A stretch of DNA of 64,000 nt from Vicinamibacterales bacterium (GCA_048594885.1 JBMDXB010000013.1:24115-88114), one strand, 5' to 3'. Shown: positions 3,577 through 60,934, counted from the first letter of the stretch. A program made the numbers and translations. Notes: generated by a model from the letters alone, not told the origin.

Positions 3577-3690
3577 GGGTCCCTAGTCCCTGGACCCTGG
3601 TCCCTGGTCCCTGGCCCTTCGTCCCTGGTCCCGGGATCCGGGACCCGGGACGCGTGACCAGGGACCAGGGACTTGGGACCTGGGTCCAGG
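3577..3690. repeat. Inverted heptamer array: (TGGTCCC)n arm, central GGTCCCGG-GAT-CCGGGACC, then (GGGACCA)n arm; predicts a long imperfect hairpin
   Basis: Reads in strict period 7: gggtccc tagtccc tggaccc tggtccc tggtccc tggccct tcgtccc tggtccc | gggatcc | gggaccc gggacgc gtgacca gggacca gggactt gggacct gggtcca. Starts 5 nt after the stop codon of the upstream receptor gene. Confidence 0.85.
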
Positions 3691-3739
3691 CACCTCCGTT
3701 TGGAGTTGTCTCACCCCCTCCGCGGGTTGTATAACCTCT

Positions 3740-3777
3740 CGGACACCGCACTACACCGCTAAAGTAGGCGGTGTCCG
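3740..3777 (+). promoter_or_regulatory. Leader hairpin upstream of the second TBDR gene (10-bp perfect stem, 18-nt loop)
   Basis: cggacaccgc (3740-3749) is the exact reverse complement of gcggtgtccg (3768-3777). It lies 33 nt upstream of the ATG at 3810. Function not determinable from sequence. Confidence 0.3.
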
Positions 3778-3809
3778 TCGGTTTGCACGTTTTACGCAGG
3801 GGGATGTAG

Positions 3810-7313
<3,504 letters not shown>

Positions 7314-7316
<3 letters not shown>

Positions 7317-7397
7317 TCGCTGATCGCTGATCGCTGATCGCTGATCGCTGATCGCTGATCGCGGTTCGCTGATCGCTGATCGGGTTCGTGGTTAGCG
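7314..7397. repeat. Direct heptamer array (TGATCGC)n, about 12 units, 6 of them consecutive and perfect
   Basis: taatcgc (contains the TAA stop) followed by tgatcgc x6, ggttcgc, tgatcgc, tgatcgg, gttcgtg, gttagcg. Eight GATC sites, mostly 7 bp apart. Confidence 0.9.
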
Positions 7398-7402
7398 GTT
7401 CG

Positions 7403-7440
7403 GGGCTCGGTCGCTGCTCGTTCGAGCGGCGGCCGAGCCC
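7403..7440 (+). terminator. GC-rich hairpin, candidate intrinsic terminator after TBDR paralog 2
   Basis: gggctcggtcgc (7403-7414) pairs with gcggccgagccc (7429-7440), 11 of 12 complementary. No U-tract, so the strength of the call is limited. Confidence 0.35.
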
Positions 7441-7479
7441 TGTTTGTCTCTGGGCCGCAAACGTGCGGCACAATAAGAC

Positions 7480-10437
7480 GTGGCCGCGCGTGTCTGTTTG
7501 CTCTTCTGCGGATGCTTCGCCCTCTTGCTTCAGGGCCAGAGTGTCTCGCGGCGCATCATGTGGGACGATGCTGCGCCGCTGCATTCGTGGCTCGAGGCAC
7601 GCGGCATCACGCGCGACGCGTTTGCCTCCTACGTCGATCGCATCGCACAAGAGAACGTCCGGCGGGTTCGCGAGGGCGACCTCGATCACCTGATCTTCTA
7701 CATCCTCCAATCCACGCGGTTCACGAAACTGCCGCCGATCGAGCCGGCGCTGAGCGCGAAAGCGTTCGTCGGCTCCGGCGGCGTGCCTGACGACGCCAAG
7801 GCGCGGGCGGCCGCGTTTCTGCGCGCGCTGGACTCCAGGAAAGCAGACGATGAGCGGCTCGCGTACTTTCGCGAGCTAGCGGCGTTTGCGTTCCCCGACC
7901 GCAACACGCGCGAGGCGGCGCTGCTCGCCGAGTACGCGCGCGTGATGAAGTTCGTCTACGAAAAGGAGTTCGTCGCGCAGAAATCGATGGACCCGGCCGA
8001 CGCCGTCGCAGCGCTGTATCGCACGCGCGGGCTCAGCACCGACACCGCCGTCGAGGCGGGATTCCTCGTGCACGAGGGCCTCGCCGTGCTGAAGGCGCTC
8101 GAGCCCGAACGGCGGATCCGGCGCGTGCTGATCGTCGGGCCAGGCCTCGATCTCGCGCCGCGAACCGGCTTCGACGACGCGCGCGCCCCCGAGAGCTACC
8201 AGCCGTGGGCTGTCATCGACGCGCTGATCGGCCTGGGACTTTCGAGTGCCACCGATCTCCAGGTTGTCGCAGCGGATATCAATCCACGCGTGGTGGACCA
8301 TCTCCGCCACTCGCAGAAGACGCCGCCGGTGCTGCGGCTCGCCCCGGAGATTCGCGACAGCGGCTCCGTCTCGCTGTCGCAGGATTTTCGCGGCTACTTC
8401 GAGCAGTTGGGCGCACGGCTCGGTGAGCGCACGAGAGACGGCATTCGCGTCAACCCGCGTGTCGCGCGCGTTCTGAGGGCCGAGCCGCTCGACATCGTCA
8501 CCGAGCGGCTCACCGGCGAGCCGTTCGATCTCGCGATCGCGACGAACATCCTGCCGTACTTCGACGACGTGCAGTTGATGCTCGCGATGAGCAACATCGC
8601 GGCCATGCTGGCGCCGGGCGGCGTGTTCCTGCACAACGAGGCGCGGCCGGCGATGCACGAGATCGGCAAAGCGGTGGGGATGCCGCGGGAGCAGTCGCGC
8701 CTTGCAATCATCGCTACGGTGAAAGGCGCACCGCCGCTCGCCGACAGCGTGTGGATCCATCGGGGAGCCGGGGAGCCGGGGGGCCGGGGAGCCGGCGTGG
8801 GCGCCGAAGCGCGAAGCGCGAAGGCGGCGGGGCTTGGGTTCTCGTTCACGAACATCGCACAGCAGGCGGGGCTGACGGCGAAGACGATTTACGGCAAACA
8901 GGGCACGAACACGTACCTGATCGAGACGACGGGCACGGGCGTGGCCGTGCTCGACTACGACGCGGACGGTTGGACGGACATCTTCCTCGTCAACGGCAGC
9001 ACGCTCGAGGCGGGGGGCCCGGAAGCTGCGAATCACCTTTATCGCAATCGAGGCGATGGTACGTTCGAGGACGTCACGATTCGCGCCGGGTTGAATCACG
9101 GCGGCTGGGGGCAGGCGGCGTGCGTCGCCGACTACGACAACGACGGCCGCGACGACCTGTTCGTGACGTACTGGGGTCAGAACCGTCTCTATCGCAACCA
9201 GGAGAACGGCACGTTCGAGGACGTGACGGCGCGCGTGGGGCTCACGCACGATCGTCGCCGCTGGAGCGCCGGCTGCGCGTTTCTCGACTACGACCGCGAC
9301 GGCCGCCTCGATCTGTTCGTCGCCACCTACGTCGATCTCGATCTCGCCAACACGCCGCTGCCGTCGTCTGGGCTGTGCCGCTACAAGGGGCTGCCGGTCG
9401 CCTGCGGCCCGTCGGGGCTGCCTGGCAGCACCAACGTGCTCTATCGCAGCCGCGGCGACGGTACGTTTGCCGACGTCTCCGCCGCGTCGGGCGTCGCGAG
9501 CGCGAAAGGAGTCTACGGCCTCGGCGTATCGACGCTCGATTTCGACGGGGATGGGTGGGTCGATGTCTACGTCGCGAACGATTCGACTGCCAGCGCGTTA
9601 TATCGCAACAATCGCGACGGCACATTCACCGACATCGGCACCGAGGCAGGCTGTGCGTTCAACCAGGACGGCCGGCCGCAGGCCGGCATGGGTGTCGCGG
9701 TCGGCGACTACGATCGCAACGGGACGATGGATGTCTTCAAGACGAACTTCGCCGGTGACACGTCGACGCTCTACGGCAACACCGGCAAGGGCACCTGCGA
9801 GGATCGAACGTTCGCGAGCGGCCTCGGTGTGAACACGCGCTGGCTCGGCTGGGGCGTCAGCTTCGTCGATCTCGATCTGGATGGGTGGCTCGACCTGTTT
9901 CTCGCCAACGGCCACGTCTACCCGGAAGTGGACCAGTTGAAATCCGAGGCCGGCTACCGGCAGCCGAAGGTGGTCTATCGCAACCTGCGCAGCGGCAGAT
10001 TCGCCGACGTGACGTCGCGTCTCGGCGCGCCCGTCACGACGCCGAAGGCCGCGCGAGGCGCGGCATTCGCCGATTTCGACAACGACGGCGACGTCGACGT
10101 TGTCGTCAACAACGTCCACGACACGCCGGATCTGTTCCGGGTCGATCGGATATCGCCAGGACACTGGATCACGCTGAAGCTGGCCGGCACGCGCTCCAAC
10201 CGTAGCGCGATCGGCGCGCTCGCGCGCGTCATCACGGCGGACGGCGAGCAGCGCCAGGAGGTCCGCGGCGGCGGCAGCTACTACTCGCAGAACGACCTCC
10301 GGCTGCACTTCGGTCTGGGCGACGCCTCAGCCGTACAGCGCGTCATCGTCCGATGGCCCAGCGGCGTCGAGGAATCCTGGACGGCTCTTACGGCCAATCG
10401 GGCTCACACCCTACAAGAAGGCGCCGGAATGCGGTAG
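7480..10437 (+). CDS. Secreted fusion protein: N-terminal class-I methyltransferase-fold-like domain + C-terminal FG-GAP/VCBS repeats with ASPIC/UnbV domain (CRTAC1-like)
   Basis: 985-aa ORF with GTG start. Signal-like N-terminus MAARVCLLFCGCFALLLQGQ. Rossmann-type motifs 'RVLIVGPGLD', 'VVAADIN', 'DLAIATNILPY', 'LAPGGVFLHNE'. From about aa 445: 'FTNIAQQAGL...VAVLDYDADGWTDIFLVNG', repeated 'DYDxDGxxDL' FG-GAP units, and the UnbV signature 'GTRSNRSAIGALARV...GGGSYYSQNDLRLHFGLG...VRWPSG'. Confidence 0.75.
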   Translation: MAARVCLLFCGCFALLLQGQSVSRRIMWDDAAPLHSWLEARGITRDAFASYVDRIAQENVRRVREGDLDHLIFYILQSTRFTKLPPIEPALSAKAFVGSGGVPDDAKARAAAFLRALDSRKADDERLAYFRELAAFAFPDRNTREAALLAEYARVMKFVYEKEFVAQKSMDPADAVAALYRTRGLSTDTAVEAGFLVHEGLAVLKALEPERRIRRVLIVGPGLDLAPRTGFDDARAPESYQPWAVIDALIGLGLSSATDLQVVAADINPRVVDHLRHSQKTPPVLRLAPEIRDSGSVSLSQDFRGYFEQLGARLGERTRDGIRVNPRVARVLRAEPLDIVTERLTGEPFDLAIATNILPYFDDVQLMLAMSNIAAMLAPGGVFLHNEARPAMHEIGKAVGMPREQSRLAIIATVKGAPPLADSVWIHRGAGEPGGRGAGVGAEARSAKAAGLGFSFTNIAQQAGLTAKTIYGKQGTNTYLIETTGTGVAVLDYDADGWTDIFLVNGSTLEAGGPEAANHLYRNRGDGTFEDVTIRAGLNHGGWGQAACVADYDNDGRDDLFVTYWGQNRLYRNQENGTFEDVTARVGLTHDRRRWSAGCAFLDYDRDGRLDLFVATYVDLDLANTPLPSSGLCRYKGLPVACGPSGLPGSTNVLYRSRGDGTFADVSAASGVASAKGVYGLGVSTLDFDGDGWVDVYVANDSTASALYRNNRDGTFTDIGTEAGCAFNQDGRPQAGMGVAVGDYDRNGTMDVFKTNFAGDTSTLYGNTGKGTCEDRTFASGLGVNTRWLGWGVSFVDLDLDGWLDLFLANGHVYPEVDQLKSEAGYRQPKVVYRNLRSGRFADVTSRLGAPVTTPKAARGAAFADFDNDGDVDVVVNNVHDTPDLFRVDRISPGHWITLKLAGTRSNRSAIGALARVITADGEQRQEVRGGGSYYSQNDLRLHFGLGDASAVQRVIVRWPSGVEESWTALTANRAHTLQEGAGMR
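8761..8826 (+). repeat. In-frame micro-repeat arrays encoding the interdomain linker: (CGGGGRGC)x4 octamers, then (GAAGCGC)x2-3 heptamers
   Basis: cggggagc cggggagc cggggggc cggggagc at 8761-8792, then gaagcgc gaagcgc gaaggcg at about 8806-8826. Translated as HRGAGEPGGRGAGVGAEARSAKAAG, exactly between the MTase-like and CRTAC1-like halves. Confidence 0.8.
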
Positions 10438-15060: not shown

Positions 15061-15177
15061 CAAAGGCCAAAGGCCAAAGGCCAAAGGCCAAGGGCCGACC
15101 AAGGACCAAGGACCAAGGACCAAGGACCAAAGCACCAAGGACCAAGGACCAGGGACCAGGGACCAGGGACCAGGGAC
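15061..15177. repeat. 117-bp direct heptamer array, 17 units without a phase break: CAAAGGC x4 -> CAAGGAC-type x~7 -> CAGGGAC x4
   Basis: Fills essentially the entire gap between the TGA at 15058-15060 and the ATG at 15179. The terminal units (GGGACCA phase) are identical to the right arm of the 3577-3690 array. Confidence 0.9.
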
Positions 15178-16307: not shown

Positions 16308-19300
16308 ATGATGCGACGTGTAGCCCGATCCGTCTTGCTCGTCCTCGTGGTGATTGGCCTTGCGCAGCCGGCGTTCGCGCAGGGCAGTCCCACGTCTTCG
16401 TTGTCCGGCGTGGTCGTTGACACGGCCGGCGGTGTGGTTCCAGGGGCGTCGGTCGTCGTGAAGAACAACGCCACCGGCGTGACGCTGGAAGTGGTCAGCA
16501 ACTCCGAGGGTGTCTTCTCGATTCCCGGTCTCGAGCCGGCGACCTACACGGTGACCGTCGCGCTCGCAGGCTTCAAGACGGCCGTTGTCAACGACGTCCG
16601 TCTGCTCGCGTCGCGTCCGGGCGAGGTCAAGGTCACGCTCGAAGTCGGCAACCTCACGGAGACCGTCGAGGTGAAGGCGCGGTCGGAACTGGTCCAGACG
16701 CAGTCGACCACGGTGGCATCGACGATCACCTCCGAGCAGATCAACGACCTGCCGATCGTCACCCGCAACACGCTCTACTTCACCACCTTCCTGCCGGGCG
16801 TCGAGACGCAGGGCGGGCCGCGCGGCTCGACGATCATGGGGCTACCGCAGAACACCATCAGCATCACGATCGACGGCGTCAGCACGAGCAACCTGCTGCA
16901 GTCGGGAGACGGCTTCTTCTCGATGGTCACACCGCGGCCGGATGCAATCGAAGAGGTGACCGTGACGGGCGCGACGCCAGGAGCCGGCAGCGCCGGCGCC
17001 GGTGCCGTCCAGATCGGCTTCGTGACGCGCTCGGGAACCAACCGCTTCGTGAGCAGCGTCTACGACTATTTCCGCCATCCGTCGCTCAACTCGAACTACT
17101 TCTTCAACAAGATCAACGGCCTCGATCGCAACGAGGTCATCGTGCACCAGGCCGGCGCGCGTTTCGGCGGGCCGCTCGTCATCCCCGGACTGTTCGACGG
17201 CCGCAACAAGGCGTTCTTCTTCGTCAACTACGAGCAGTTCTACCAGCCGACCGAGGCCACGCGGACGCGCACGATCCTCAACGAGAATGCCGCGCGCGGC
17301 CTGTTCACCTACACGGCCGGGGGGACGACGCGAACCGTCGACATGCTGGCGCTGGCGACCTCACAGGGCCAGACCTCGACGCTCGACCCGACTGTTGCGC
17401 GGCTCCTGAGCAGCATCCGCGCATCGACCGCGATCACCGGCACGCTCTCGACGCCGGCCAACTTCATCAACACGCAGCGGTTCGTCTACCAGACCGAGTC
17501 GCGACGCGACGAATACGCGCCGACGGTGCGCCTGGACTACAACGTCACGGACAAGCACCGCGTGACGGGCTCCTACTACTGGCAGAAGATCAACTCGGTG
17601 CCGGACATCCTGAACAACGCCGAAACGAGGTTCCCGGGAGCCGATTTCACCAACTTCGGCACGCAGTGGTCGTATCGCACCGTCGGGTCGATCAAGCTCC
17701 GATCCACGCTGGGCCGGGATTTCGTCAATGAGGTGACGAGCGGCTGGCAATGGTCGCCGGTCTACTTCTACACGAACACATCGCCGGAGATGTTCAACAA
17801 CCAGTCCGGCTTCAGCCTCGGCTTCGGCGGCGGGCCGAACAACACCGAGTTCAGCAACCTCACGGGCGTGACGTCGGTCAACAACCCGCAGCCGCGCAAC
17901 ACGACGAACTGGAACATCGACGACAACGTGAGCTGGCTGAAGGGCACGCACTCGCTCACCTTCGGCGGCACGTTCGTCCAGATCACGCACAACCAGAACA
18001 GCCGCAACCTCGTTCCCACGATCGGTTTCGGCGTCGACACGACGAACGATCCTGCACGGGGGATGTTCTCGACGACGTTCTTCCCTGGAGCGTCGACGAA
18101 CCAGTTGTCGATGGCGCGTCATCTCTACGCGCTACTGACGGGCCGGGTGACGTCGATCGGTGGCACCGCGCGTCTCAACAACGACGGCGAGTACGTCTAC
18201 CTCGGGAACCTCAATCAGATCTCGCGGATGCGCAGCCTCGGTTTCTACGCCCAGGATTCCTGGCGCATGAAGCCGAACATCACGCTCAACTATGGCGCCC
18301 GCTACGAGCTGCAGTTCCCGTTCACGCCGATCACCAACACGTGGTCGACCGTGACGCAGACCGACGCCTGTGGTAAGTCCGGCATCGGACAAGGGCTGGG
18401 GGATCGCTGGTGCAACCTGTTCCAGCCCGGCAACCTCGCCGCGCCGAACGTCGTCCCGCAGTACGTGAAGTACGATCCCGGCGCCCCTGGGTTCAACACC
18501 GACTACAACAACATCGCGCCGAACGTCGGCATCGCCTGGCGGCCGAACGTCCAGAACGGCTGGCTGCGCTCGCTGCTCGGCGATCCCGAGCAGGCGACGC
18601 TGCGCGGCGGGTTCTCCGTCGCGTTCAACCGCGAGCGCATGGACCGCTTCACCGGCCTGTACGGCGGCAACGTCGGCGGCACGACGAACGTCAGCAACCG
18701 GACCAACAACAACGCCAACCTGATCGAGCCGGGCCGTGGCTGGCCGCTGCTGTTCCGCGAGAGCGAACGCCTCGGACCGCCCTCGTTCCCGAAGACCCCG
18801 AACTATCCGATTCTCGCGTCGATCACTGCCGGCAACGACATGAACATCTTCGACCCGGATGTCGAGACGCCGTACACGCAGTCGTGGACCGTCGGCTTCC
18901 AGCGCTCGCTCGGCCGCGACACGGCGGTCGAGATCCGCTACGTCGGCAACCGCAACCGCAAGGCGTGGACGACGGAGAACTGGAACGCGGAGAACATCTT
19001 CGAGAACGGGCTACTCGACGAGTTCAAGCGCGCGCAGTCGAACCTGGTCGCCAATGTCGTCGCCGGCCGCGGCGGGACGTTTGCGTACATGGGGCCGGGG
19101 ACCGGGACGACGCCGCTGCCGATCTTCATGGCATTTCTGCTCGGGCAGCCCGCGTCGGCGGCGACCAATCCGGCCGCCTACACGGGGACGCAGTGGCGGA
19201 GCTCCACCTGGGTCGACAACCTCGGACAGTACGAGCCCGATCCGGAAGACCTGGCCTCCGACCTGTGGACCGGCAACAGCGGCGGTTGGCGCCGCAACGC

Positions 19301-20198
19301 GCTCCTCGCCGGGCTCCCGGCGAACTTCCTCGTGCTCAACCCCGACGTGGACAACGTCAACGTGACCCTCGCGCGCGCGTTCAGCAAGTACCACTCGCTG
19401 CAGATGGAGGTCCGCCGCCGCCTCTCGCGCGGCCTGACGTTCACCGGCAACTACACCTACGCGCGGCGCTGGGGCTCGTCGCTCCAGGATCTCCACGTCG
19501 ATCGCATCTTCATCGAGACCGACGCCGTTCCACATGCGTTCAAGGGCACGTGGATCTACGAGATCCCCGTCGGCCGCAACAAGCGCTACGGGTCGAACAT
19601 GAACCGGTGGCTGAATGCGGTCATCGGCAACTGGGACTTCTCGGGTACCGGCCGTGTGCAGGTGCGCGATCTCGGTATCACCGGTCTCCGCGCGGTCGGC
19701 ATGTCGGAACAGGACGTGAAGGACGCGTTCAAGATCCGCATCTTCAGGGATCCGTCGAGCGGCACCGTCACCGTGTTCAACTTCCCGGACGACATCATCA
19801 CGAACACGCGGCGCGCCTTCAACACGGACCCGACGTCGCCCACCGGCTATCCCGCCGGCGAGGAGCCGGTCGGCCGTTATCTCGCGCCGGCGAGCGTGCC
19901 GGGCTGCGTCTTCCTCTTCAACCGCGACTGCGGCACGTCGGAGCAGATCTGGGTACGAGCGCCGTGGTTCTCCCGGTGGGACATGCGGCTGAAGAAGCGC
20001 TTCCCGTTCGGCCGCACGGCGAACTTCGAGCTCGACTTCGAGGTCCTGAACGTGTTCGACAACGTCAACTTCAACCCCGCGTACAACCCTGGCAGCGGCA
20101 ACACGATCTTCCAGGTGACGAGCGGGTATACGGACATCAACACGACGTTCGATCCGGGCGGCCGCCTCGGACAGATCGTCGTGCGCTTCAACTGGTGA
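16308..20198 (+). CDS. TonB-dependent receptor with CarboxypepD_reg-like domain
   Basis: 1296 aa. Signal peptide MMRRVARSVLLVLVVIGLAQPAFAQG. 'GVVVDTAGGVVPGASVVVKNNATG...SNSEGVFSIPGLEPATYTVTVALAGF'. Ends ...VVRFNW. GAGGGGGA lies upstream. Confidence 0.88.
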   Translation: MMRRVARSVLLVLVVIGLAQPAFAQGSPTSSLSGVVVDTAGGVVPGASVVVKNNATGVTLEVVSNSEGVFSIPGLEPATYTVTVALAGFKTAVVNDVRLLASRPGEVKVTLEVGNLTETVEVKARSELVQTQSTTVASTITSEQINDLPIVTRNTLYFTTFLPGVETQGGPRGSTIMGLPQNTISITIDGVSTSNLLQSGDGFFSMVTPRPDAIEEVTVTGATPGAGSAGAGAVQIGFVTRSGTNRFVSSVYDYFRHPSLNSNYFFNKINGLDRNEVIVHQAGARFGGPLVIPGLFDGRNKAFFFVNYEQFYQPTEATRTRTILNENAARGLFTYTAGGTTRTVDMLALATSQGQTSTLDPTVARLLSSIRASTAITGTLSTPANFINTQRFVYQTESRRDEYAPTVRLDYNVTDKHRVTGSYYWQKINSVPDILNNAETRFPGADFTNFGTQWSYRTVGSIKLRSTLGRDFVNEVTSGWQWSPVYFYTNTSPEMFNNQSGFSLGFGGGPNNTEFSNLTGVTSVNNPQPRNTTNWNIDDNVSWLKGTHSLTFGGTFVQITHNQNSRNLVPTIGFGVDTTNDPARGMFSTTFFPGASTNQLSMARHLYALLTGRVTSIGGTARLNNDGEYVYLGNLNQISRMRSLGFYAQDSWRMKPNITLNYGARYELQFPFTPITNTWSTVTQTDACGKSGIGQGLGDRWCNLFQPGNLAAPNVVPQYVKYDPGAPGFNTDYNNIAPNVGIAWRPNVQNGWLRSLLGDPEQATLRGGFSVAFNRERMDRFTGLYGGNVGGTTNVSNRTNNNANLIEPGRGWPLLFRESERLGPPSFPKTPNYPILASITAGNDMNIFDPDVETPYTQSWTVGFQRSLGRDTAVEIRYVGNRNRKAWTTENWNAENIFENGLLDEFKRAQSNLVANVVAGRGGTFAYMGPGTGTTPLPIFMAFLLGQPASAATNPAAYTGTQWRSSTWVDNLGQYEPDPEDLASDLWTGNSGGWRRNALLAGLPANFLVLNPDVDNVNVTLARAFSKYHSLQMEVRRRLSRGLTFTGNYTYARRWGSSLQDLHVDRIFIETDAVPHAFKGTWIYEIPVGRNKRYGSNMNRWLNAVIGNWDFSGTGRVQVRDLGITGLRAVGMSEQDVKDAFKIRIFRDPSSGTVTVFNFPDDIITNTRRAFNTDPTSPTGYPAGEEPVGRYLAPASVPGCVFLFNRDCGTSEQIWVRAPWFSRWDMRLKKRFPFGRTANFELDFEVLNVFDNVNFNPAYNPGSGNTIFQVTSGYTDINTTFDPGGRLGQIVVRFNW

Positions 20199-20202
20199 GA
20201 GA

Positions 20203-20295
20203 GGCGGAACTGAAAGTTCCGCCCTACGGCCGCCACCGACGCGCGAAAATGCCGTAGAAACCTGCTGTCGTAGGGCGGAACTTCAGTTCCGCCCT
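20203..20295. repeat. Pair of REP-like palindromic elements in inverted orientation
   Basis: ggcggaactgaaagttccgccctacgg (20203-20229) and cgtagggcggaacttcagttccgccct (20269-20295) are reverse complements of each other apart from a 1-nt indel. Each is itself a hairpin (ggcggaac/gttccgcc). A third half-site gttccgcc is at about 20303. A further 10-bp perfect hairpin, atgtgccggc/gccggcacat, is at 20319-20347. Confidence 0.8.
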
Positions 20296-20489
20296 GCAAC
20301 TGTTCCGCCTCCGATAGAATGTGCCGGCGACGGTCCTGCCGGCACATGCATCGTCCCCCGTCGAGAGCTTGCGGTGTCGATCGGCGTGCCGTCCGATCAG
20401 ACCCTGAGCCTCGGCGCCTGCCCTTGAATTTCAATGATGCGAGGCAGGATCCGGCAGAATGATGTATAGGATCGTGCAGACGAATTGCC

Positions 20490-21041: not shown

Positions 21042-22604
21042 TTGCGGGGCACAGGCGTGAAGCCGATAGGTCTTCTGTTCATCGCCGCCGCCGTTTTCGG
21101 CTCCAGCGTCGGCTACGCGACTTCGAACCTGCAAACGTCCGACATCGCAACCGAGGCGGAGGCGCGGCAGGCGTGCGGCACGGCCTGCCACAGATTCCCT
21201 CCGCCGGACATCCTTCCACGCGCCGCCTGGCGCGGCGTCCTCGTCCGCATGCTGATGATCCGCGACGGCATCCCCGAGCCGGCCGGCGGCCTTGGCGGAC
21301 TGTCGTTCGTGATGCCGCTGCCCGCCGACTGGATGCGGGTGCGGCGCTACTACGAATCGCTCGCGCCTGCGGCGCTCCCGCAACCGGAGCAATGGCCCGA
21401 TGCCGGCACGGCGCCGTTTCAGCGCCAGCCGCTCACGCCGGCAGGCGCGCCGATGACGCCCGCGATCGCGAACGTCCGCTTCCTCGACATCGACGGCGAC
21501 AAACGCCTGGACATCGTCGCCAGCGACATGCGCGCGGGCAAGGTGATCGCCGGCCTTGCCAAAGACGCGTTCGCGCTGAAGGCGATAGCCGAGGTGCCCC
21601 ATCCGGCGCGCATCGAGCAGATCGATCTCGACAAGGACGGTCTGCAGGATCTGCTGGTCGCGGACCTCGGCTCGTTCTTCCCGGGTGATCATCACAACGG
21701 TGCGGTCGTCTGGCTGCGCCAGCAGAAAGGTGGCGCGTTCACGCCTCGGCGTCTTGCCGAGGGACTGGGCCGCACCGCCGACGCGCGCGCGGCCGACTTC
21801 GACGGCGACGGCGATCTCGACGTCATCGTCGCGGTGTTCGGCTGGCGGCAGACCGGCGCGGTCCTCCTGCTCGAGAACCGGACGACGGATTGGGCGGCGC
21901 CGAAGTTCTCACCGCGGACGATCGACGCGAGAACGGGCGCCATTCACGTACCGATCGTCGACCTCAACGGCGACGGGCGTCCGGACTTCGTCGTCCTGCT
22001 CGCGCAGGAGCACGAATCCGTGGTCGCGTTCCTGAACGCCGGAAAGGGCGAGTTCAAGGCGGAAAGCATCTACGCCGCCCCGCATCCCAACTGGGGCTCG
22101 TCCGGCATCGAGGTGGTCGATCTCGACGGAGACCGCGACCTCGACGTGCTGCTGACGCACGGTGATACGTTCGACGACTTCCTGCTCAAGCCGTACCATG
22201 GCATCACCTGGCTCGAGAGCCGCGGAACGTATCCGTACACGGCTCACCTGCTCGCGGCATTACCGGGCGCGCACCGCGCCCAGGCGGCGGACTTCGACGG
22301 CGACGGCGATCTCGACATCGCGGCGGCGGCCATGGCCCATGCCGACGACGCGGCAACCGGATCGCGCCTGGGCTCGGTCGTGTGGCTCGAACAGGTCAAG
22401 CCCGGCCTTTTCGAGCGCCACACGATCGAGCGGGGCACCCCAAATCATGCGACGCTCGACACCGCGGACGTCGATAATGATGGTGATCCCGATCTGGTCG
22501 TCGGCTGGTTCGCGATCCAGGACTCGACACCGGCGTGGATCGACCGGTGGATGAATTCCGCAAGAGCCGAGAACAGAAATAGACGTGAAGGGAGGCAGAC
22601 ATGA
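21042..22604 (+). CDS. Secreted FG-GAP repeat protein (no UnbV domain) with an N-terminal CX3CH motif
   Basis: 520 aa. Start uncertain (TTG 21042 or GTG 21057). 'LDIDGDKRLDIV', 'ADFDGDGDLDVIV', 'VDLNGDGRPDFVV', 'VDLDGDRDLDVLL', 'ADFDGDGDLDIA', 'ADVDNDGDPDLVV' are FG-GAP/VCBS units. 'CGTACH' at nt 21174-21191. Confidence 0.75.
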   Translation: MRGTGVKPIGLLFIAAAVFGSSVGYATSNLQTSDIATEAEARQACGTACHRFPPPDILPRAAWRGVLVRMLMIRDGIPEPAGGLGGLSFVMPLPADWMRVRRYYESLAPAALPQPEQWPDAGTAPFQRQPLTPAGAPMTPAIANVRFLDIDGDKRLDIVASDMRAGKVIAGLAKDAFALKAIAEVPHPARIEQIDLDKDGLQDLLVADLGSFFPGDHHNGAVVWLRQQKGGAFTPRRLAEGLGRTADARAADFDGDGDLDVIVAVFGWRQTGAVLLLENRTTDWAAPKFSPRTIDARTGAIHVPIVDLNGDGRPDFVVLLAQEHESVVAFLNAGKGEFKAESIYAAPHPNWGSSGIEVVDLDGDRDLDVLLTHGDTFDDFLLKPYHGITWLESRGTYPYTAHLLAALPGAHRAQAADFDGDGDLDIAAAAMAHADDAATGSRLGSVVWLEQVKPGLFERHTIERGTPNHATLDTADVDNDGDPDLVVGWFAIQDSTPAWIDRWMNSARAENRNRREGRQT

Positions 22605-23938
22605 AGCGCCTCTTCGTCCCGCTCGTTCTCGCGTTCACATTCCCGCTTGCCGCCCAACAGCCGCCGATCACCAGGACGACGACCACCGGCGTTCTGATTG
22701 ACGTGACCGTCGTCGATCGTCAAGGACAGCCTGTCCTCGACCTGCGCCCAGACGAGTTCGAGCTCGAAGAGGACGGCAAGCGGCAGAAGATTGCCGCAGT
22801 GTCGCTGGTCCACGCCGGCGTCAGCAAGGCGATCGGAGCACCGGTGGTGTCGACACCGCCCGCCTCGCCGGCAGCGACGGCGCCGCCAGCGGCCGACGTG
22901 GTGCCGGACCTGACGCCGAGCGTCACCGCCATCCTGTTCGATCGCCTCACGAGCGAAATCCGTCCGCTGGCGCATCGCGCGGCGCAGGCGCACGTGGCGT
23001 CGATGTCGTCGCCGCGCGACTACACGGGCGTCTTCCTCGCCGACACCACCCTGCGCACGTTCGCGAGCTTCACGAACAACACGGAGACGCTGCGCACCGC
23101 AGTCGATCGGCTCGGTGTGACGCCGGCTGCGAACGTCTCACCGGAAGCCGAGCGTGGTACATACGGCCTCGTGCAGAATCTGCCGGTCGATCCTAATCAG
23201 CCGGTCACTCCGAGTGCGGAGTCTGGAGCGGGCTGGATTAATCCGATCGAGCGGCAGAAGCACGTCCCGAACCCCGACCGATTGGGGGGACCCGAGGCTG
23301 CGCAGATAGGACTACTGCGAATGCAGTTGCGGATGCTCGAGACGTTCCGGCCGCTGCTCGAAGAGTTCCACGGGCACGCGTCGCTTGCGGCGCTGCGCGC
23401 CGTCGTCGGCGGCATGGCGATGCTTCCCGGCCGGAAGAGCATTCTCTACTTTTCGGAGGCGCTGCCGCTGACCGACGCCGTCAAGCCGAAGTTCGAAGCG
23501 TTGATCCAGGAGGCGAACCGCCACAACATCAGCTTCTACGCGGTGGACGCCGCCGGGCTTCGCGTCCACAGCGAGGGAGCGAGGGTGGCGAGGAACGTGG
23601 ATCTCGCGGGCGCGCAAGGCATCGGCGACGTGGAGCGCAACCGCGGCGCGTGGACGAAGGACATCGAGCGGCAGAGCGACCTCCTCTCGTCGAGCGTCTC
23701 GCTCGGCCGGCTCGCGAATGAGACGGGCGGGTTCCTCATCGACAACACCAACGACCTCACGAAGGGCTTCGCGCGCATGCAGCAGGACCGGACGACGTAC
23801 TACCTGCTGGCGTATCAGCCGACGAACGTGAAGGCGGACGGCACGTTCCGCAAGGTGAAGGTGAAGGTGAATCGCCCGCGCGTGACGGTCAGGGCGCGCC
23901 CGGGTTATGTGGCGGAAGCAGTAGGCAGTAGGCAGTAG
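22601..23938 (+). CDS. VWFA-related Acidobacterial domain protein (TIGR03436-like), secreted
   Basis: 445 aa. ATG overlaps the upstream TGA (ATGA). GGGAGG RBS. Signal peptide MKRLFVPLVLAFTFPLAAQ. Family N-terminus 'VLIDVTVVDRQGQPVLDLRPDEFELEEDGKRQKI'. C-terminal 'GTFRKVKVKVNRPRVTVRARPGY'. Confidence 0.85.
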   Translation: MKRLFVPLVLAFTFPLAAQQPPITRTTTTGVLIDVTVVDRQGQPVLDLRPDEFELEEDGKRQKIAAVSLVHAGVSKAIGAPVVSTPPASPAATAPPAADVVPDLTPSVTAILFDRLTSEIRPLAHRAAQAHVASMSSPRDYTGVFLADTTLRTFASFTNNTETLRTAVDRLGVTPAANVSPEAERGTYGLVQNLPVDPNQPVTPSAESGAGWINPIERQKHVPNPDRLGGPEAAQIGLLRMQLRMLETFRPLLEEFHGHASLAALRAVVGGMAMLPGRKSILYFSEALPLTDAVKPKFEALIQEANRHNISFYAVDAAGLRVHSEGARVARNVDLAGAQGIGDVERNRGAWTKDIERQSDLLSSSVSLGRLANETGGFLIDNTNDLTKGFARMQQDRTTYYLLAYQPTNVKADGTFRKVKVKVNRPRVTVRARPGYVAEAVGSRQ

Positions 23939-23945
23939 GCAGAGC
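23918..23945. repeat. Short heptamer array (GCAGTAG)x3 + GCAGAGC overlapping the last 7 codons and the stop of the VWFA gene
   Basis: gcagtag gcagtag gcagtag gcagagc. Translated ...AVGSRQ*. The unit contains TAG. Confidence 0.75.
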
Positions 23946-23946: not shown

Positions 23947-25662
23947 TTACGATACGCCCTTGCCTTCGACGATTGTCACGTAGCGATCGACGGGCAGGTT
24001 GGTGAGCCGCTCGACGCGGCCGCTCGGCTGCGGCCACTTGATCTCCACCCAGTCCACCTTCGCGGCAGTGCCGAGACCGAGTACCTCGCGCACGTCGTGC
24101 GACGAAAGATAGCTGCCGCCGCTGGTCTTGTAGCGGCTGCGTGTCGTCCCGTTCACCGACCACGTCATCGTCGTGCCGATCGCGTCGCGGTTGCACGTGG
24201 TGCCCTGCAGTCTCAGCCCGAGCCAGTGGTGGCCGTCGCCGGCGTTGTTCTCCAGCAGCAGCGGCGCGCCGCCGTTGTTGCCGACGAGCACGTCGATGCG
24301 GCCGTCGTTGTTGTAGTCGCCGATCGCCAGGCCGCGCGCGGGAAACGACTTATGGAACACCGGCCCCGCCTGCGCGCTGACGTTCGTCAGCTTCGTGCCC
24401 TCGTGCCGGAACAGCAGCAGCGGCTCCTCGTACTTCACCTGCTGCGAGTACTGCTCGATCATGTCGTCCGGGTGGCCGTTGGCCAGGAACAGATCGACCA
24501 GGCCGTCGTTGTCGTAATCGAAGAACTTCAGCCCCCAGCCGCTCAGCAGACGCGTCGCCTGGGCGACGCCGTGGCCTGCGGCCACGTCGCGGAAGTACTC
24601 CTTGGTCTCGTTCTGATACAGCGAGAACATTTCCTGATCGACGTTCGCCACGAACAGGTCCTGCCAGCCGTCGCCGTTGAAGTCCGAAGCGTCGACGCCC
24701 ATGCCGGATCGCGGGGCGCCGTTCGCGCTGAACCCGACTTCGGCGGCCAGGCCGATCTCTTCCCACTTGCCCTTGCCGCGGTTCACGAACAGGAAGTTCT
24801 GCACGGTGTCGTTGGCGACGAACAGATCCATCAGCCCGTCGTTGTTGATGTCGGTCGCGACGACGCCGAGGGCCTTGCCGAGCGCACGATGGATGTCGGT
24901 GCCTTCGCTGACCTTCGTGAAGGTGCCGTCGCCGTTGTTGTGATAGAGCACGCTCGGCGTCGGCTTGAAGACGCGGGGGATGCAGTAGAAGCGCCGCCCC
25001 AGCTTGTTGTCGCCGCAGAACACGTTGTTCTTGAGCGAGAACTCGACGAAGCTGCAGAGAAACAGATCGAGACGGCCGTCGTTGTCGTAATCGAACCAGA
25101 CCGCACTCGTCGTCCAGCCGGGCGTCGCCACGCCCGCCTTGTCCGTCACGTCGGTGAAGGTGCCGTTGCCGTTGTTGCGATACAGCGTGCAGCGGCCGTA
25201 GGCAGTGACGAGGATGTCCTGGTGGCCGTCATTGTCGTAGTCGGCGATGGCGCAGCCCATGCCGAACTCGTGGCCGCCGGCGACGCCGGCCTTGTCGGTC
25301 ACGTCGGTGAACGTGCCGTCGCGGTTGTTCTTGTAGAGCGCGTTCTTCAACGGCGTCTTCGGCTGGTAGAAATCGGCGCGGCCGCTGTTCACCATGAAGA
25401 TGTCCATCCAGCCGTCGTTGTCGTAGTCGAAAAACGCCACGCCGGGCCCCATCGTCTCCGGCAGGTAGCGCTCCGGAGACATCGCGTTCTCGTGCACCCA
25501 CGTGATACCGCTGGCCGCCGGCGGAATCTCCTCGAACACGGGCGGTGCGGCGGCGAGGCGCGGCAGCAAGGTGCGGCCGTGTGCCATGGACATGCCCGCC
25601 ATCGCCAGCAGGCGCATGACGTCGCGGCGGGACGGCATCGGTGACATTCGCGAACGGTTCAT
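23947..25662 (-). CDS. FG-GAP/VCBS + ASPIC/UnbV protein (CRTAC1-like) with twin-arginine-type signal
   Basis: 571 aa. '[19 protein letters not shown]' is Tat-like. '[20 protein letters not shown]'. UnbV signature '[15 protein letters not shown]...[17 protein letters not shown]...IKWPQPSG'. Confidence 0.85.
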
Positions 25663-55703: not shown

Positions 55704-55754
55704 GGGGTCAGGTCTTGAATTACTGCAAAATGCTGGAATTCAAGACCTGACCCC
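55704..55754. terminator. 18-bp perfect inverted repeat between convergent genes (candidate bidirectional terminator)
   Basis: ggggtcaggtcttgaatt (55704-55721) and aattcaagacctgacccc (55737-55754), 15-nt loop. The right arm lies inside the last 12 codons of the minus-strand Ldh_2 gene. Confidence 0.5.
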
Positions 55755-57567: not shown

Positions 57568-57595
57568 CCTCCTTCGAGCGGACCCACAGCGTTTC

Positions 57596-57662
57596 AACAC
57601 GGAGATCACGGAGAACACGGAGCAAACTAAATTGCCTCCGTGTGCTCCGTGCGCTCCGTGTG
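57596..57662. repeat. Inverted 9-mer array: (NNCACGGAG)x3 - 13-nt loop - (CTCCGTGNG)x3
   Basis: aacacggag atcacggag aacacggag | caaactaaattgc | ctccgtgtg ctccgtgcg ctccgtgtg. Flanking strings 'cgtttcaacacggag' and 'gctgcggccctgttcga' recur at 58375-58425. Confidence 0.85.
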
Positions 57663-57686
57663 AAGATGCTGCGGCCCTGTTCGAGA

Positions 57687-58334: not shown

Positions 58335-58374
58335 GGCTAGTCCTCCTCCTCTACTCCATCAATCGTATCCACAT

Positions 58375-58411
58375 CGTTTCAACACGGAGCCGTGCCCTCC
58401 GTGTTGGAACG
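58375..58411. repeat. Single-unit copy of the CACGGAG palindromic element
   Basis: cgtttcaacacggag - ccgtgcc - ctccgtgttggaacg (14 of 15 complementary). Same orientation and flanks as the 57596-57662 element. Confidence 0.8.
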
Positions 58412-58456
58412 CTGCGGCCTTGCTGAAATGGAGCGCGTTGGCCGTGCTGAACAGGA

Positions 58457-60907
58457 TCAGAAACGGTTCCCCTTCGTCTTCGTCCTCACGCGCATCAGAT
58501 ACATGTCGGCCGTGATGTACAGCGTGCTGCCGTCGTCGCCCCACGCGCAGTTGGCGGTGGCCTGCCCGGTGTCGATCGTGCCGAGGTGCTTGCCTTCTGG
58601 CGAGATGATCAACACGCCGCCCGGTCCCGCCGCCCACAGATTGCCGTTGACGTCGATCTTCAGGCCGTCGGGCAGGCCGCGGCGCGTCTTCGTCATCGGC
58701 GTCGCGTCGAAGAGCACGCGGCTGTTCGTCAGCGTGCCGTCCTTCGCGAGGTCGAACACGCGCCAGATCGCGGCGCTCTCATCTGACTGCGCGACGTAGA
58801 GCCGCCGCTCGTCCGGCGAGAACGCCAGGCCGTTCGGCCGTGTCATGTCACGCGTCAGCAGCGTGACCTCCCCTTTCGCGCTGCGCCTGAACACGCCGGC
58901 GTAGGGCAGCTCGCGTTTCGGGTCGTCCCACTGCTTCTCCATGCCGTAGGCCGGATCGGTGAAGTACAAATCGCCGTTGCTGTGGAAGACGAGATCGTTC
59001 GGACTGTTGAACCGCTTGCCCTCGTAGCGATCCGCAAGCGTCGAGAAAGCCGGCTTGGGCGCGGTGAGCGGCGCCTCCATGATCGCGACGCGGCGGTCGC
59101 CGTGCTGGCAGAGCGCCAGCCGCCCGCGCGGGTCGAGCGTGAGGCCGTTCGAGCCGGTCTCGCCGCCGCGCGGCGCCGAGCCGGTGTAGCCTGACGGCGT
59201 CAGATATGGCTTCGCCCCCTCGCCCTGCTTCCAGCGGTGGACGATGTTCTTGGGGACGTCGGAGAAGAGCAGGTAGCCGCCGTCCTTCACCCACACGGGG
59301 CCCTCGCTCCAGTCGTATCCCTCCGCGAGGATTTCGATCTTGGCGTTCGGATCGATCAGCCGATCGAGCGCTGGATCCAGTCGTTCGATGCGCATGGCAG
59401 TCTTTGGCTGTGAAGCCGCGTGGACGGCCGTCTCCGGCACCCCCGCGGCGCGCAGGAGCACGCGCCCCTGCTGGTAAATGGTCATCCCGGCGAGCGCGCC
59501 GTAGAGCACGATCGACCACACCATCGCCGCGAGCCGGTAGGAGCGCAGCCGGATCGCACCCGGCAGCGCGCGGCGGTTCAGCACGATCAGCAGGAATGAG
59601 TAGACGAACATGATCGCTCCCGCGGAACAGGCGGAGATGACCAGCAGGACGAGCGGCTGGTCGAGGCCGGCGAGGATGATGCCACAGCCGACGAGCACCA
59701 TCACCCAGACGAGCGCGAAGTACAGCCGGCTCTCCGAGACCGACGATGTCCTGAGGTAAGTGGACTTGAGGATGTCCGCCGTCAGCCGGCTCGTGTAATC
59801 GGTGATCCCCATCGAGGCGGTGAAGAGCGAGAAGGCGCCGACCGCCCAGAAGAGCAGCCCGAACCACGGTGCCACCTTCGCCTGGAGCTGTTGCCCCTCG
59901 ATCTTCAGGAAGCTGACGTTGTTCGGCAGCCCCGCCTGGCCGAAGAGCGTCGAGTGCGCGAGCATGGACGTCAGGCAGATCGTCACGACCGTGACCAGCA
60001 CGAACGTGACCGCCTGTTCCACGTTGACGAAGCGCCACCACCGCCGCCAGTGCGACATGTTGCCGGCGTCCGGCTCGAACATGAACGCGGTAGCGGCGTG
60101 CGCGTCCGCCTCTTCGACGCCGGTCACCGGACTCACCAGGCGCGGCACGTAGCGGCCCATGCCGAACCCCTTGTCGCGGATCCAGTTGCTCTGACAGAGG
60201 TTCTGCCCGCCGCCTGCCCCCGCATACGCGACAGCGCCCATGAGCAGCGCGAACCCAAGCTCGCTGGGCACCGAGCCGAACGCGACGAGCCCGCCCGGCA
60301 GCGCCGCCCACGTCGTCCCGTCGATCGCGAACGCCACCGCCAGCGCAACGAGCAGGAGCACCGCCGCCAGCTTGACGAACACCAACCGCTCGAGCGCGAC
60401 GTAGATGACGGGCGCCAGCGTCAGCGAGGCGCCGATCACCAGCAGGATCCCGATCGCGACCATCCGCGGATTGCCGCCGAGCAGATAGGTCGTCAGCGTC
60501 GCCGAGCTCATCGCCCAGCCGGGCCAGAAGTTGCCGAACGACACGAGCACCGCGAACGTGAGGCCCCAGTGTTTCCACAGCCGGTTGAACCCGGTCAGCG
60601 CCGTCTCGCCGGTGGCGAGCGTGTAGCGCTCGATTTCCATGTTGAGGAAGAACTGCGTGACGACGCCGAGGATCGCGCCCCACAGGAAGACGAGCCCGAC
60701 CTGCGAGGCGATGTACGGCCAGAGGATGAACTCGCCGGACGACACGCCGACGCCGGCCGCGACGACGCCCGGGCCGACGATCCGCCAGAGCTGCCGGGGC
60801 GGCTCCGGAAGATCGCGGACCTGATAGGCGGGAAGGTGGTCGATGACCTGTGGCGGCACGGGGTCAATGCTAAATGCTAAATGCCGAATGCCAAAACAAT
60901 TTGGCAT
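58457..60907 (-). CDS. Fusion protein: Nramp-family divalent-metal transporter (about 11 TM) + C-terminal SMP-30/gluconolactonase/LRE-like beta-propeller
   Basis: Single ORF with no stop between the halves. Nramp N-terminus 'LWRIVGPGVVAAGVGVSSGEFILWPYIASQVGLVFLWGAILG...FFLNMEIERYTLATGE'. From nt 59395 downward: 'MRIERLDPALDRLIDP...EGPVWVKDGGYLLFSDVP...NSPNDLVFHSNGDLYFTDP...RPNGLAFSPDERRLYVA...PDGLKIDVNGNLWAAG'. Start ambiguous: ATG 60907 (inside the hairpin repeat) or GTG 60859. Confidence 0.8.
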   Translation of the reverse strand: MPNCFGIRHLAFSIDPVPPQVIDHLPAYQVRDLPEPPRQLWRIVGPGVVAAGVGVSSGEFILWPYIASQVGLVFLWGAILGVVTQFFLNMEIERYTLATGETALTGFNRLWKHWGLTFAVLVSFGNFWPGWAMSSATLTTYLLGGNPRMVAIGILLVIGASLTLAPVIYVALERLVFVKLAAVLLLVALAVAFAIDGTTWAALPGGLVAFGSVPSELGFALLMGAVAYAGAGGGQNLCQSNWIRDKGFGMGRYVPRLVSPVTGVEEADAHAATAFMFEPDAGNMSHWRRWWRFVNVEQAVTFVLVTVVTICLTSMLAHSTLFGQAGLPNNVSFLKIEGQQLQAKVAPWFGLLFWAVGAFSLFTASMGITDYTSRLTADILKSTYLRTSSVSESRLYFALVWVMVLVGCGIILAGLDQPLVLLVISACSAGAIMFVYSFLLIVLNRRALPGAIRLRSYRLAAMVWSIVLYGALAGMTIYQQGRVLLRAAGVPETAVHAASQPKTAMRIERLDPALDRLIDPNAKIEILAEGYDWSEGPVWVKDGGYLLFSDVPKNIVHRWKQGEGAKPYLTPSGYTGSAPRGGETGSNGLTLDPRGRLALCQHGDRRVAIMEAPLTAPKPAFSTLADRYEGKRFNSPNDLVFHSNGDLYFTDPAYGMEKQWDDPKRELPYAGVFRRSAKGEVTLLTRDMTRPNGLAFSPDERRLYVAQSDESAAIWRVFDLAKDGTLTNSRVLFDATPMTKTRRGLPDGLKIDVNGNLWAAGPGGVLIISPEGKHLGTIDTGQATANCAWGDDGSTLYITADMYLMRVRTKTKGNRF

Positions 60908-60934
60908 TCAGCATTCGGCATTCAGCATTGACCC
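60861..60934. repeat. 74-bp near-perfect hairpin built from inverted heptamer arrays (AATGCTA/AATGCCG)x4 - acaa - (GGCATTC/AGCATTC)x4
   Basis: gggtcaatgctaaatgctaaatgccgaatgccaaa | acaa | tttggcattcagcattcggcattcagcattgaccc. 35-nt arms with 4 mismatches. Lies between the TBDR stop (60941) and the Nramp-fusion start. Confidence 0.9.

Follow-up and report, generated by a model that had tools for sequence, protein, structure and literature searches.

The DNA analysed here is a stretch of 64,000 nucleotides from a Vicinamibacterales bacterium (GCA_048594885.1, JBMDXB010000013.1:24115-88114), hereafter called the window, with a G+C content of 64-71%. Its genes include five CarboxypepD_reg/TonB-type outer-membrane receptors and many FG-GAP/ASPIC and TPR proteins (Pfam). 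About one third of its intergenic gaps contain arrays of short tandem units, most of them seven nucleotides long, and several others contain plain hairpins. An initial annotation, made from the sequence, had listed seven array sites, and both Tandem Repeats Finder (TRF) and a reading of the raw sequence recovered all of them with their units and positions: six arrays of period 7, placed by TRF at 3578-3690, 7316-7402, 15061-15177, 23918-23942, 36579-36633 and 60866-60929, and one site of inverted 9-mer arrays at 57596-57662. These seven are referred to as loci 1-7, in order of position, and they are listed below together with an eighth tract and an unexpanded sister of the 9-mer element.

3578-3690, no strand assigned: inverted heptamer arrays, (GGTCCCT)~8 and then (GGGACCA)~8 (TRF, reading, fold)
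7316-7402, no strand assigned: direct array, (TGATCGC)~12 (TRF, reading, fold)
8761-8823, no strand assigned: tract of (CGGGGAGC)×4.4 and (CGAAGCG)×2.7, the eighth site (TRF, reading)
15061-15177, no strand assigned: direct array with a gradient of units, CAAAGGC ×5, then GACCAAG ×~7, then GACCAGG ×4, equivalent to GGGACCA (TRF, reading, self-match scan)
23918-23942, no strand assigned: array of (GCAGTAG)×3.6 (TRF, reading)
36579-36633, no strand assigned: direct array, (CTGCACC)×8 (TRF, reading, Pfam)
57596-57662, no strand assigned: inverted 9-mer arrays, (NNCACGGAG)×3 and (CTCCGTGYG)×3 (TRF, reading, fold)
58369-58417, no strand assigned: unexpanded sister of the 57596-57662 hairpin, CGTTTCAACACGGAG...CTCCGTGTTGGAACG (inverted-repeat and copy search, fold)
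60861-60934, no strand assigned: inverted heptamer arrays, AATGCTA/AATGCCG ×4 and GCATTCR ×4 (TRF, reading, fold)

Related loci were retrieved from species-representative genomes by a search with the alignment of two paralogous receptors, which gave 77 loci (1.25 Mb; best amino-acid identity 87%), nearly all labelled Vicinamibacterales, Luteitalea or Acidobacteriota; the window comes from a Vicinamibacterales acidobacterium. Counts for the lineage refer to the window plus these 77 loci, about 1.3 Mb with 13-64 kb per genome, and individual loci and contigs carry L numbers. Genes were called from codon usage, with approximate start-codon positions. The Rfam 15 covariance models, at gathering score, gave no match in the window, nor any tRNA or tmRNA. 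CRISPR, MIRU-type and tRNA-linked identities were rejected on the size of the unit and the lack of spacers.

Three of the inverted arrays had been predicted to form long stems, in agreement with folding of 3570-3700 (-92.9 kcal/mol, z -7.6), 57585-57675 (-56.4 kcal/mol, z -9.8) and, on the minus strand, 60855-60940 (-61.3 kcal/mol, z -13.3); the direct arrays at 15061, 23918 and 36579 are unstructured (z -2.0, the weak structure of the first, and -0.6 and -0.3). The first of these hairpins is imperfect and about 50 bp long, and starts 5 nt past the stop codon of a TonB-dependent receptor gene (72-3572); a GGACCC variant is mirrored across both arms, as read from the sequence and the fold. The TGATCGC array begins with the TAA stop of the next receptor gene (3810-7316), and after it comes another hairpin, independent of the array, that resembles a classical terminator and has a T-run (7401-7442). 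The two receptors are paralogues with 83% protein identity and their 3' arrays are entirely different, a GGTCCCT hairpin versus a TGATCGC direct array; therefore, array turnover outpaces the 17% divergence of the proteins.

Elsewhere the arrays fill gaps from one gene to the next. The array at 15061-15177 occupies the whole interval between the TGA of an FG-GAP/ASPIC gene (ending at 15060) and the ATG of a CN-hydrolase gene at 15179, with 1 nt to spare, and that at 36579-36633 fills the gap between two minus-strand TPR genes, where it reads GGGTGCA on the sense strand and therefore has G-quadruplex potential. The 9-mer arrays form a hairpin of about 33 bp, with no T-run, between convergent genes. 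Their sister copy at 58369-58417 is unexpanded and has the same flanks, and the 57596 array therefore arose by expansion within a pre-existing hairpin; no copy of this CACGGAG element was found in any of the 77 related loci. The arrays at 60861-60934 form a near-perfect hairpin of about 38 bp, also with no T-run, 6 nt past the stop of a minus-strand outer-membrane barrel gene (60941-63976).

All seven sites had been described as intergenic, which holds for most of them. The array at 23918-23942, however, is not purely so, as it writes the C-terminal codons and the TAG stop of the open reading frame (ORF) 22601-23938; a convergent gene (23947-25638) has its stop 4 nt away from the array. The codons written by GCAGTAG are the seven final ones (AVGSRQ and the stop, 23918-23938). 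Any heptamer that holds a stop trinucleotide ends every frame within three units, and arrays can therefore overwrite C-termini. The tract at 8761-8823 was overlooked by the initial annotation because it lies inside the ORF 7480-10437, which reads through it since it has no stop in that frame; none was read in the other two plus-strand frames. In relatives this ORF of 985 aa corresponds to two separate genes, residues 1-426 matching a gene of ~442-463 aa and residues ~433-980 an FG-GAP/ASPIC gene of ~553 aa (L007, L014, L016), and the 8-mer/7-mer tract is the junction. In L007 and L016, heptamer arrays occupy the orthologous gap. Two origins come into question for the junction, a fusion or read-through of the genes mediated by the array, or an indel error in the repeat.

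Several other structures in the window are worth recording. Two ordinary, non-repetitive hairpins with arms of 23-24 nt stand at gene ends (55704-55754 and 37836-37883), and a loose inverted pair of period 8, ACGCGACG-like and then TGACGTCG-like, lies between two minus-strand genes at 33040-33135 (TRF scores 38-54). Just 3' of the receptor gene 16308-20198, four copies of GTTCCGCC and two of the inverted GGCGGAAC, irregularly spaced, make up a cluster of hairpins (20199-20300), which is a non-heptamer relative of the array theme. At 7464-7482, a conserved CACAATAG/TACAAT box is found 5-7 nt ahead of the GTG start of the next gene (e.g. GGCACAATAGCAGCGTG), and the same box occurs downstream of the TonB receptor gene in L005, L014-L016, L022, L030, L037, L040, L050 and L073-L076; from its motif and place, it looks like a candidate -10 element for a leaderless transcript.

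Period, density and position of the arrays

In the window, exact self-match runs number seven at period 7 and zero or one at each other period from 2 to 15, and in 100 dinucleotide-preserving shuffles of the window the runs of period 7 have a mean of 0.01 and a maximum of 1. The prevalence of this period, which the initial annotation had proposed for the window, extends to the lineage, where 102 arrays of period 7 (at least 3.5 copies) compare with 26 at the next commonest non-coding period. Arrays of at least four copies in the 77 loci number 87 at period 7, 11 at period 8 and six at period 9, and perfect intergenic arrays of at least three copies (in 0.2 Mb) number 3, 43 and 7 at periods 6, 7 and 8, respectively. 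As many as 94 of the 102 arrays are intergenic, although non-coding DNA makes up only 15% of the sequence (p ~1e-66), and coding DNA, which is 5.5 times larger than the intergenic part, has a single perfect period-7 array of at least three copies. The arrays are a genuine, non-coding feature of period 7 that reaches well beyond the window.

Array density is 8.85 per 100 kb in Vicinamibacterales-like loci, 2.0 in Blastocatellia and 0 in Bryobacterales/Solibacteraceae (Poisson p 0.008 and 0.002), and an independent metagenome sample gives 6.4 arrays per 100 kb in sequences with at least 64% G+C and 2.4 below that value. They are present in Illumina contigs as well as in the metagenome-assembled genomes (MAGs) of Microflora Danica (0.15-4 Mb), which are Nanopore assemblies (PMC12313526). 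The largest array has 45 units (L009), and the inverted arms of L070 have 13-24. A preference for exactly four units was considered and rejected, given that perfect runs fall monotonically (201, 92, 43, 19 and 4 at ≥2, 2.5, 3, 4 and 6 copies); the TRF mode at four units arises because the detection threshold lies there.

The arrays occur in all three classes of gap, namely 17 of 103 convergent (16.5%), 39 of 384 tandem (10.2%) and 12 of 136 divergent gaps (8.8%), and the difference between the convergent and divergent classes has a p of 0.11. In tandem gaps, where genes are co-directional, 21 arrays are nearer the stop and 18 nearer the next start (p=0.75; median distances of 20 and 32 nt, with approximate start calls). 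Often an array touches both neighbouring genes and makes up nearly the entire gap. Pfam confirmed genuine genes in divergent orientation on both sides of the five array-bearing divergent gaps that were checked: DegP-like protease/PD40 (two genomes), LacI/fucosidase, creatininase/GFO-IDH-MocA oxidoreductase and cytidine deaminase/3-keto-disaccharide hydrolase. Hence the placement just 3' of a stop codon that had been described for the window does not hold across the lineage: the arrays are not tied to the 3' ends of genes and fill divergent promoter gaps too. In the DegP/PD40 gap (L008, L009, L062, L074), a conserved TTGACA-N17-TGCAAT promoter-like motif precedes the PD40 start, beside the arrays.

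Gain, loss and drift of units

The arrays had been called slippage-prone, and this can be observed directly between near-identical strains. Two pairs of metagenome contigs, retrieved by a search with an SGL-domain protein and belonging to other species than that of the window, differ by whole units. L079 and L080 are 98.7% identical over 12.4 kb, and their sole indel above 2 nt is one of 14 nt, or two units, within a TCTRCCA array, whereas L091 and L092 are 99.8% identical and their sole indel is one 7-nt unit, also in an array. The same search yielded only relatives of the C-terminal domain, with identities of at most 81%, and no orthologues of window loci 6-7. Exact matches to three proteins of the window were also sought, and none was found. 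Between the Nanopore MAGs L037 and L050 (~95% identical over 22 kb) array copy numbers are equal, and 78 of the 89 indels are of 1 nt, which are probably homopolymer sequencing errors.

Orthologous gaps extend this picture to larger distances. The divergent DegP/PD40 gap holds derivatives of an ancestral CAGCTNT in L009, L062 and L074, and no array in L008. In L062 the unit changes stepwise along 33 units, CAGCTAT>CAGCTTC>CCGCTTC>CGGCTTC, with higher-order blocks, and in L074 the array occurs as an inverted pair. The gap upstream of a gene of ~375 aa contains no unit in L075 (TAA, 13 nt, ATG), eight in L022, about 12 in L016 and more than 13 in L014, all of them GATTGCT/GAATGCT, and the final unit merges into the sequence around the start codon, GAATG|ATCGCT, the apparent seed of the array. 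Arrays are clear in the 3' flank of a gene of ~465 aa in L002, L009, L021, L028 and L076, whereas L007 and L016 have them in shorter form; their units vary from species to species, and in the array-free orthologues the convergent genes range from overlapping to ~40 nt apart. As these array-free gaps are nearly empty, the arrays are net insertions of DNA and not replacements of another element. The gradient of unit variants at window locus 3 (15061) resembles that of the orthologous gaps. Evolution of the arrays is of the satellite type: whole units are gained and lost, variants are amplified and the unit drifts, with the period kept.

The units were initially regarded as locus-specific. The first 95 arrays that were catalogued comprise ~60 distinct canonical units, but the units are not strictly specific to their loci. 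Window loci 1 (3578) and 3 (15061) have the unit GGGACCA in common, their consensus units being one mismatch apart, and L023 carries three copies of an element of ~150 nt, (CAACTCC)4-loop-(TTGGGAG)4, within 13 kb and beside unrelated neighbouring genes, with ~65% conservation of the loop and unrelated flanks. Likewise, similar units (distance ≤1) are found in 17% of locus pairs within a genome versus 6.6% between genomes (~2.6×), and identical units, in 7% of within-genome pairs, are about five times commoner than between genomes. Some copying mechanism or genome-specific bias must therefore exist.

In composition, the units have 58% G+C, against 62% for intergenic DNA. GGGA/TCCC is present in 25 of 94 units, against 7.5 expected (3.3-fold, z 7.5), the palindromes AGCT and CCGG occur in ~4-fold and ~3.3-fold excess, and motifs of alternating type, among them CAC and ACG, are under-represented, although inverted arms and orthologues inflate these motif counts somewhat. 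In the Xanthomonas type (see below) every heptamer has a G3 tract, so that four or more units can form a G-quadruplex. Here a run of G3 or C3 is found in 34 of 94 units and about two thirds lack one; in the window, G3 tracts are carried by loci 1, 3 and 5.

Mirror-image arrays and competing explanations

We consider it most probable, at about 0.6, that the arrays are heptanucleotide long simple sequence repeats (LSSR), in the same class as the short tandemly repeated repetitive (STRR) sequences of cyanobacteria and the (GGGANTN)n repeats of Xanthomonas, that is, non-coding satellites driven by slippage. A local heptamer would first be duplicated, the likely seed being the start-codon neighbourhood in one traced case and a pre-existing hairpin in another, and replication slippage would then lengthen and shorten the array in steps of one or more complete units. 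Point mutations would give rise to variant units that are amplified in turn, so that the unit drifts at each locus and the period stays 7, and inverted duplication or template switching between hairpin arms may then generate mirror-image arrays, whose arms would later diverge by homogenisation within each arm. Purifying selection on coding sequence would confine the arrays to intergenic DNA, often from a stop codon to the next gene boundary. We infer slippage and template switching as the molecular steps, as well as the near-neutrality of the arrays.

Several observations weigh against this explanation. One is the inverted pairing, which simple slippage does not predict: an inverted partner lies within 350 nt for 45 of the 102 arrays, and when two arrays share a gap they are reverse complements in 23 of 26 cases. 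The dispersed copies in L023 need a copying mechanism. A (GGCTCAR)4-loop-(YTGAGCC)4 hairpin has kept its ~4+4 units in L030, L037, L050 and L073, while the adjacent terminator hairpin diverged, and all seven arrays first reported in the window lie within 28 nt of a stop codon (gene calls and Pfam). The non-random composition of the units could be due to structure, or to recognition by a protein, just as readily as to a mutational bias, and nothing that we tested accounts for a period of 7 over 6 or 8.

The structure of the inverted pairs bears on how they formed. In the 23 pairs, the consensus units of the two arms are identical in 11, differ by 1 nt in eight and by 2 nt in four. Short pairs are symmetric, with ~4+4 units, whereas long ones are unequal (6 vs 45, 10 vs 24 and 16 vs 9), and the arms diverge: in L091 the left arm is CAGTTTC and the right arm has three ACTGGCG and one ACTGGAA, which shows a variant that has spread through a single arm. 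In E. coli, template switching at quasipalindromes is a well-documented source of mutations (PMC7202029), and template switching between the arms of imperfect palindromes, or a fold-back inverted duplication, would be the most economical addition to slippage. A more complex arrangement is seen in L028 (7790-8139), where four arrays alternate in orientation (AGCTACC ×4, CTGGAAG ×16, AGCTTCC ×4 and AGCTGGA ×4.6) and could form nested or competing hairpins.

The stability of the hairpins and their position in the window invite another explanation, that they are functional RNA elements, selected as terminators devoid of a U-tract, as barriers to 3' exonucleases or as RNase III sites, with the direct arrays as spacers or as landing sites for ribosomes or proteins. 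We regard this as unlikely, though it survives better than the other alternatives. Besides the proximity of every window array to a stop codon, it gains from convergent gaps being the richest class, from the fact that most of the comparable Xanthomonas repeats are transcribed (PMC4692102), and from the hairpin conserved in four genomes, which has one compensatory pair but an unfavourable covariation term. Also, at 60861-60934 three of the four non-Watson-Crick positions of the stem are G.U on the sense strand; over all co-directional gaps, however, G.U-type and A.C-type stem mismatches number 18 and 12, which is not a significant excess. Against a function in RNA, the arrays occur just as readily in divergent promoter gaps and show no bias of stop over start, their copy number differs between near-identical strains, and homogenisation within an arm destroys pairing. 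The G/C and A/T composition of the units shows no strand preference with respect to the upstream gene, no Rfam family is matched, and two scans for terminators with a required T-run flagged no array hairpin in the window, only the separate hairpin 7401-7442. A role in placing stops in all three frames was rejected, since 13 units carry a stop codon against 13.0 expected from shuffles. Folding of whole gaps on both strands proved too noisy as a test of RNA selection. Taken together, the tests at the RNA level give no positive support for a function, including the role at transcript 3' ends suggested in the initial annotation, although a function may exist. At their own sites the hairpin-forming arrays very likely do behave as structures in RNA or DNA, which we regard as a by-product and not as the reason for the system.

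A further alternative is that the arrays are non-autonomous mobile palindromes of the MITE/REPIN type, with arms made of heptamer arrays and copied to new intergenic sites by a transposase encoded elsewhere, a proposal that we consider improbable. The three elements of L023, with their partly conserved loop and unrelated flanks, the two CACGGAG hairpins of the window, the likeness of units within a genome and the nature of the arrays as net insertions are all as expected of mobile DNA. However, a mobile family should be uniform in each genome, which is hard to reconcile with so many different units, and orthologous arrays can be traced to a local seed and to stepwise change of the unit in place. 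Moreover, direct arrays with no inverted partner make up more than half of the set, no target-site duplications were seen on reading the L023 copies, and no transposase was found among the 20 large ORFs of the window scanned against Pfam.

Slightly less probable again is a platform of non-B DNA or protein, in which G-rich units (GGGACCA, GGGTGCA, GGGATTC) form G-quadruplexes or i-motifs, or one OB-fold protein of the cold-shock type binds every 7 nt, so that the ligand sets the period. The enrichment of GGGA echoes the GGGAATC of Xanthomonas and the GGGGAYT of Nostoc, for which G-quadruplexes form in vitro (PMC4692102), three window arrays have at least four G3 tracts on the sense strand, and B. 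subtilis CspB is cited in PMC4679880 as binding direct heptamer repeats in single-stranded nucleic acid, with one protein per heptamer. Yet the minority of units with a G3 or C3 run is difficult to accommodate, TGATCGC, GCAGTAG and AATGCTA cannot form a quadruplex, the G-rich strand has no preferred orientation to transcription, and Rehm et al. found no regulatory role for the Xanthomonas repeats (PMC4692102). Finally, short tandem repeats can mis-assemble, and the 8761-8823 tract, which removes an expected stop, may contain an indel error, but an assembly or sequencing artefact is practically out of the question as a general explanation, because arrays of this class occur both in Illumina contigs of independent origin and in assemblies of Nanopore reads, recur at orthologous positions in many genomes and differ between strains by clean multiples of 7.

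Known heptamer repeats and significance

Heptanucleotide tandem repeats were first noticed in cyanobacteria around 1990, and the STRR units are variable, hence their use as strain-typing markers. The STRR sequences and the Nostoc GGGGA(C/T)T repeats resemble the arrays described here in being heptamer tandem arrays, dispersed and intergenic, with hundreds per genome. They differ in having a few defined units, common to a genome and to heterocystous cyanobacteria, whereas here the small set of genome-wide unit sequences that defines STRR was not found and the unit drifts locus by locus. The hosts also differ, as our closest genomes are Vicinamibacterales/Acidobacteriota MAGs and the gene content is typical of Acidobacteria. 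To our knowledge, inverted pairing has not been reported as a rule for STRR.

The STRR sequences had been proposed as the closest precedent, and the analogy is fair, but the Xanthomonas (GGGANTN)n repeats are closer, given their inverted pairs and intergenic bias. Rehm et al. (2015) described 186 heptamer arrays of GGGAATC type in Xanthomonas campestris, 89-93% of them intergenic, mostly with ~4 units and a tail to 26, with ~70 inverted pairs per genome that may form stem-loops; the arrays are rare in divergent gaps, most are transcribed and no function was found (PMC4692102). Both systems share the period of 7, the rarity in coding DNA, the frequent inverted pairs, GGGA-type units and a length and sequence that vary among close species. 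In Xanthomonas, which belongs to a different phylum, there is essentially one unit family genome-wide, and the arrays are nearer the upstream ORF (28 vs 160 nt), whereas here only about a quarter of the units have GGGA and the asymmetry between stop and start is absent.

The wider class is that of the LSSR of Mrazek, Guo & Shah (2007), with units of 5-11 nt and mostly in non-coding DNA, in which heptanucleotides are the commonest in most genomes according to PMC4679880 and PMC4692102. The arrays display every defining feature of the heptanucleotide LSSR class: in the window they have units of this size and are longer than expected by chance, period 7 prevails over neighbouring periods, units that are not a multiple of three are kept out of coding DNA, and whole-unit copy number is unstable in both strain pairs and at orthologous sites. 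As presented in the two later papers, the explanation for LSSR is also slippage, and the only reason for the number seven that we found in print, proposed by Mrazek, is a match to the stretch of DNA held by the replicative polymerase (PMC4679880, PMC4692102). LSSR are, however, a statistical class rather than a mechanism. The ten LSSR-richest genomes listed in PMC4679880 include no Acidobacteria, Huang & Mrazek (2014) contains nothing specific on heptamers in Acidobacteria, and we found no description of heptamer arrays for Acidobacteriota in the literature searched, in line with the initial annotation, which was aware of none. The TAACTGA direct repeats of Beggiatoaceae, Cyanobacteria and Bacteroidetes (MacGregor 2015, PMC4679880) are likewise intergenic heptamers, often just upstream of starts, and sometimes with mixed arrays that close relatives lack, but they have a single conserved, AT-rich unit, are almost never inverted (1 of 170 sets) and usually have 2-6 copies.

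The arrays are not intrinsic terminators and are probably not REP elements. The REP/BIME/REPIN elements of Proteobacteria are intergenic and form hairpins, and REPINs are inverted pairs dispersed in many copies, which the L023 and the CACGGAG duplicates resemble. A REP sequence is conserved throughout its genome, is not built from tandem heptamers and depends on a RAYT transposase. In the 13-64 kb available per genome such conservation was not seen: L023 has three REPIN-like copies and the window has two, while the unit is unique in most arrays, and the 20 large window ORFs scanned include no transposase. Intrinsic terminators consist of a short GC-rich stem with a loop of 3-8 nt and then a U/T-tract. 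As with them, a stable hairpin may stand just past the stop, and ordinary terminator-like hairpins occur at equivalent sites (7401-7442 and orthologues), but the stems of the arrays are 30-55 bp or longer, pass unflagged by T-run scans and are also present in promoter gaps.

Overall, the initial description is partly supported: a period-7, non-coding, slippage-prone and STRR-like system is correct, whereas the association with stop codons and a strict locus specificity are not general properties. What is new is that a major soil lineage, the Vicinamibacterales of the Acidobacteriota, carries heptamer arrays at ~9 per 100 kb, and therefore several hundred per genome, set apart by their density, an unusually large diversity of units and mirror-image pairing as the rule. 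Since diverse units occur at a constant period, the factor that sets the period cannot depend on one motif. Public MAGs allow arrays to be followed at orthologous sites through birth, stepwise change of unit, inversion and collapse, which offers a comparative handle on the mechanism. In practical terms, arrays can erase stops or extend ORFs (8761-8823, 23918-23942) and confound gene calling, and they are ready-made markers for strain typing.

We also entertain, as a long shot, that the period is set by a dedicated and so far unrecognised partner common to Vicinamibacterales, Xanthomonas and heterocystous cyanobacteria, three groups with a preference for units of GGGA type and for inverted pairs. 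It would be either a replication or repair enzyme that adds or deletes exactly 7 nt or an OB-fold single-stranded DNA-binding protein that binds once per heptamer. If this were true, the arrays would be a conserved genome-wide system of structure or regulation and not neutral satellites, and the Vicinamibacterales, with hundreds of diverse arrays per genome, would be the best place to find that partner.

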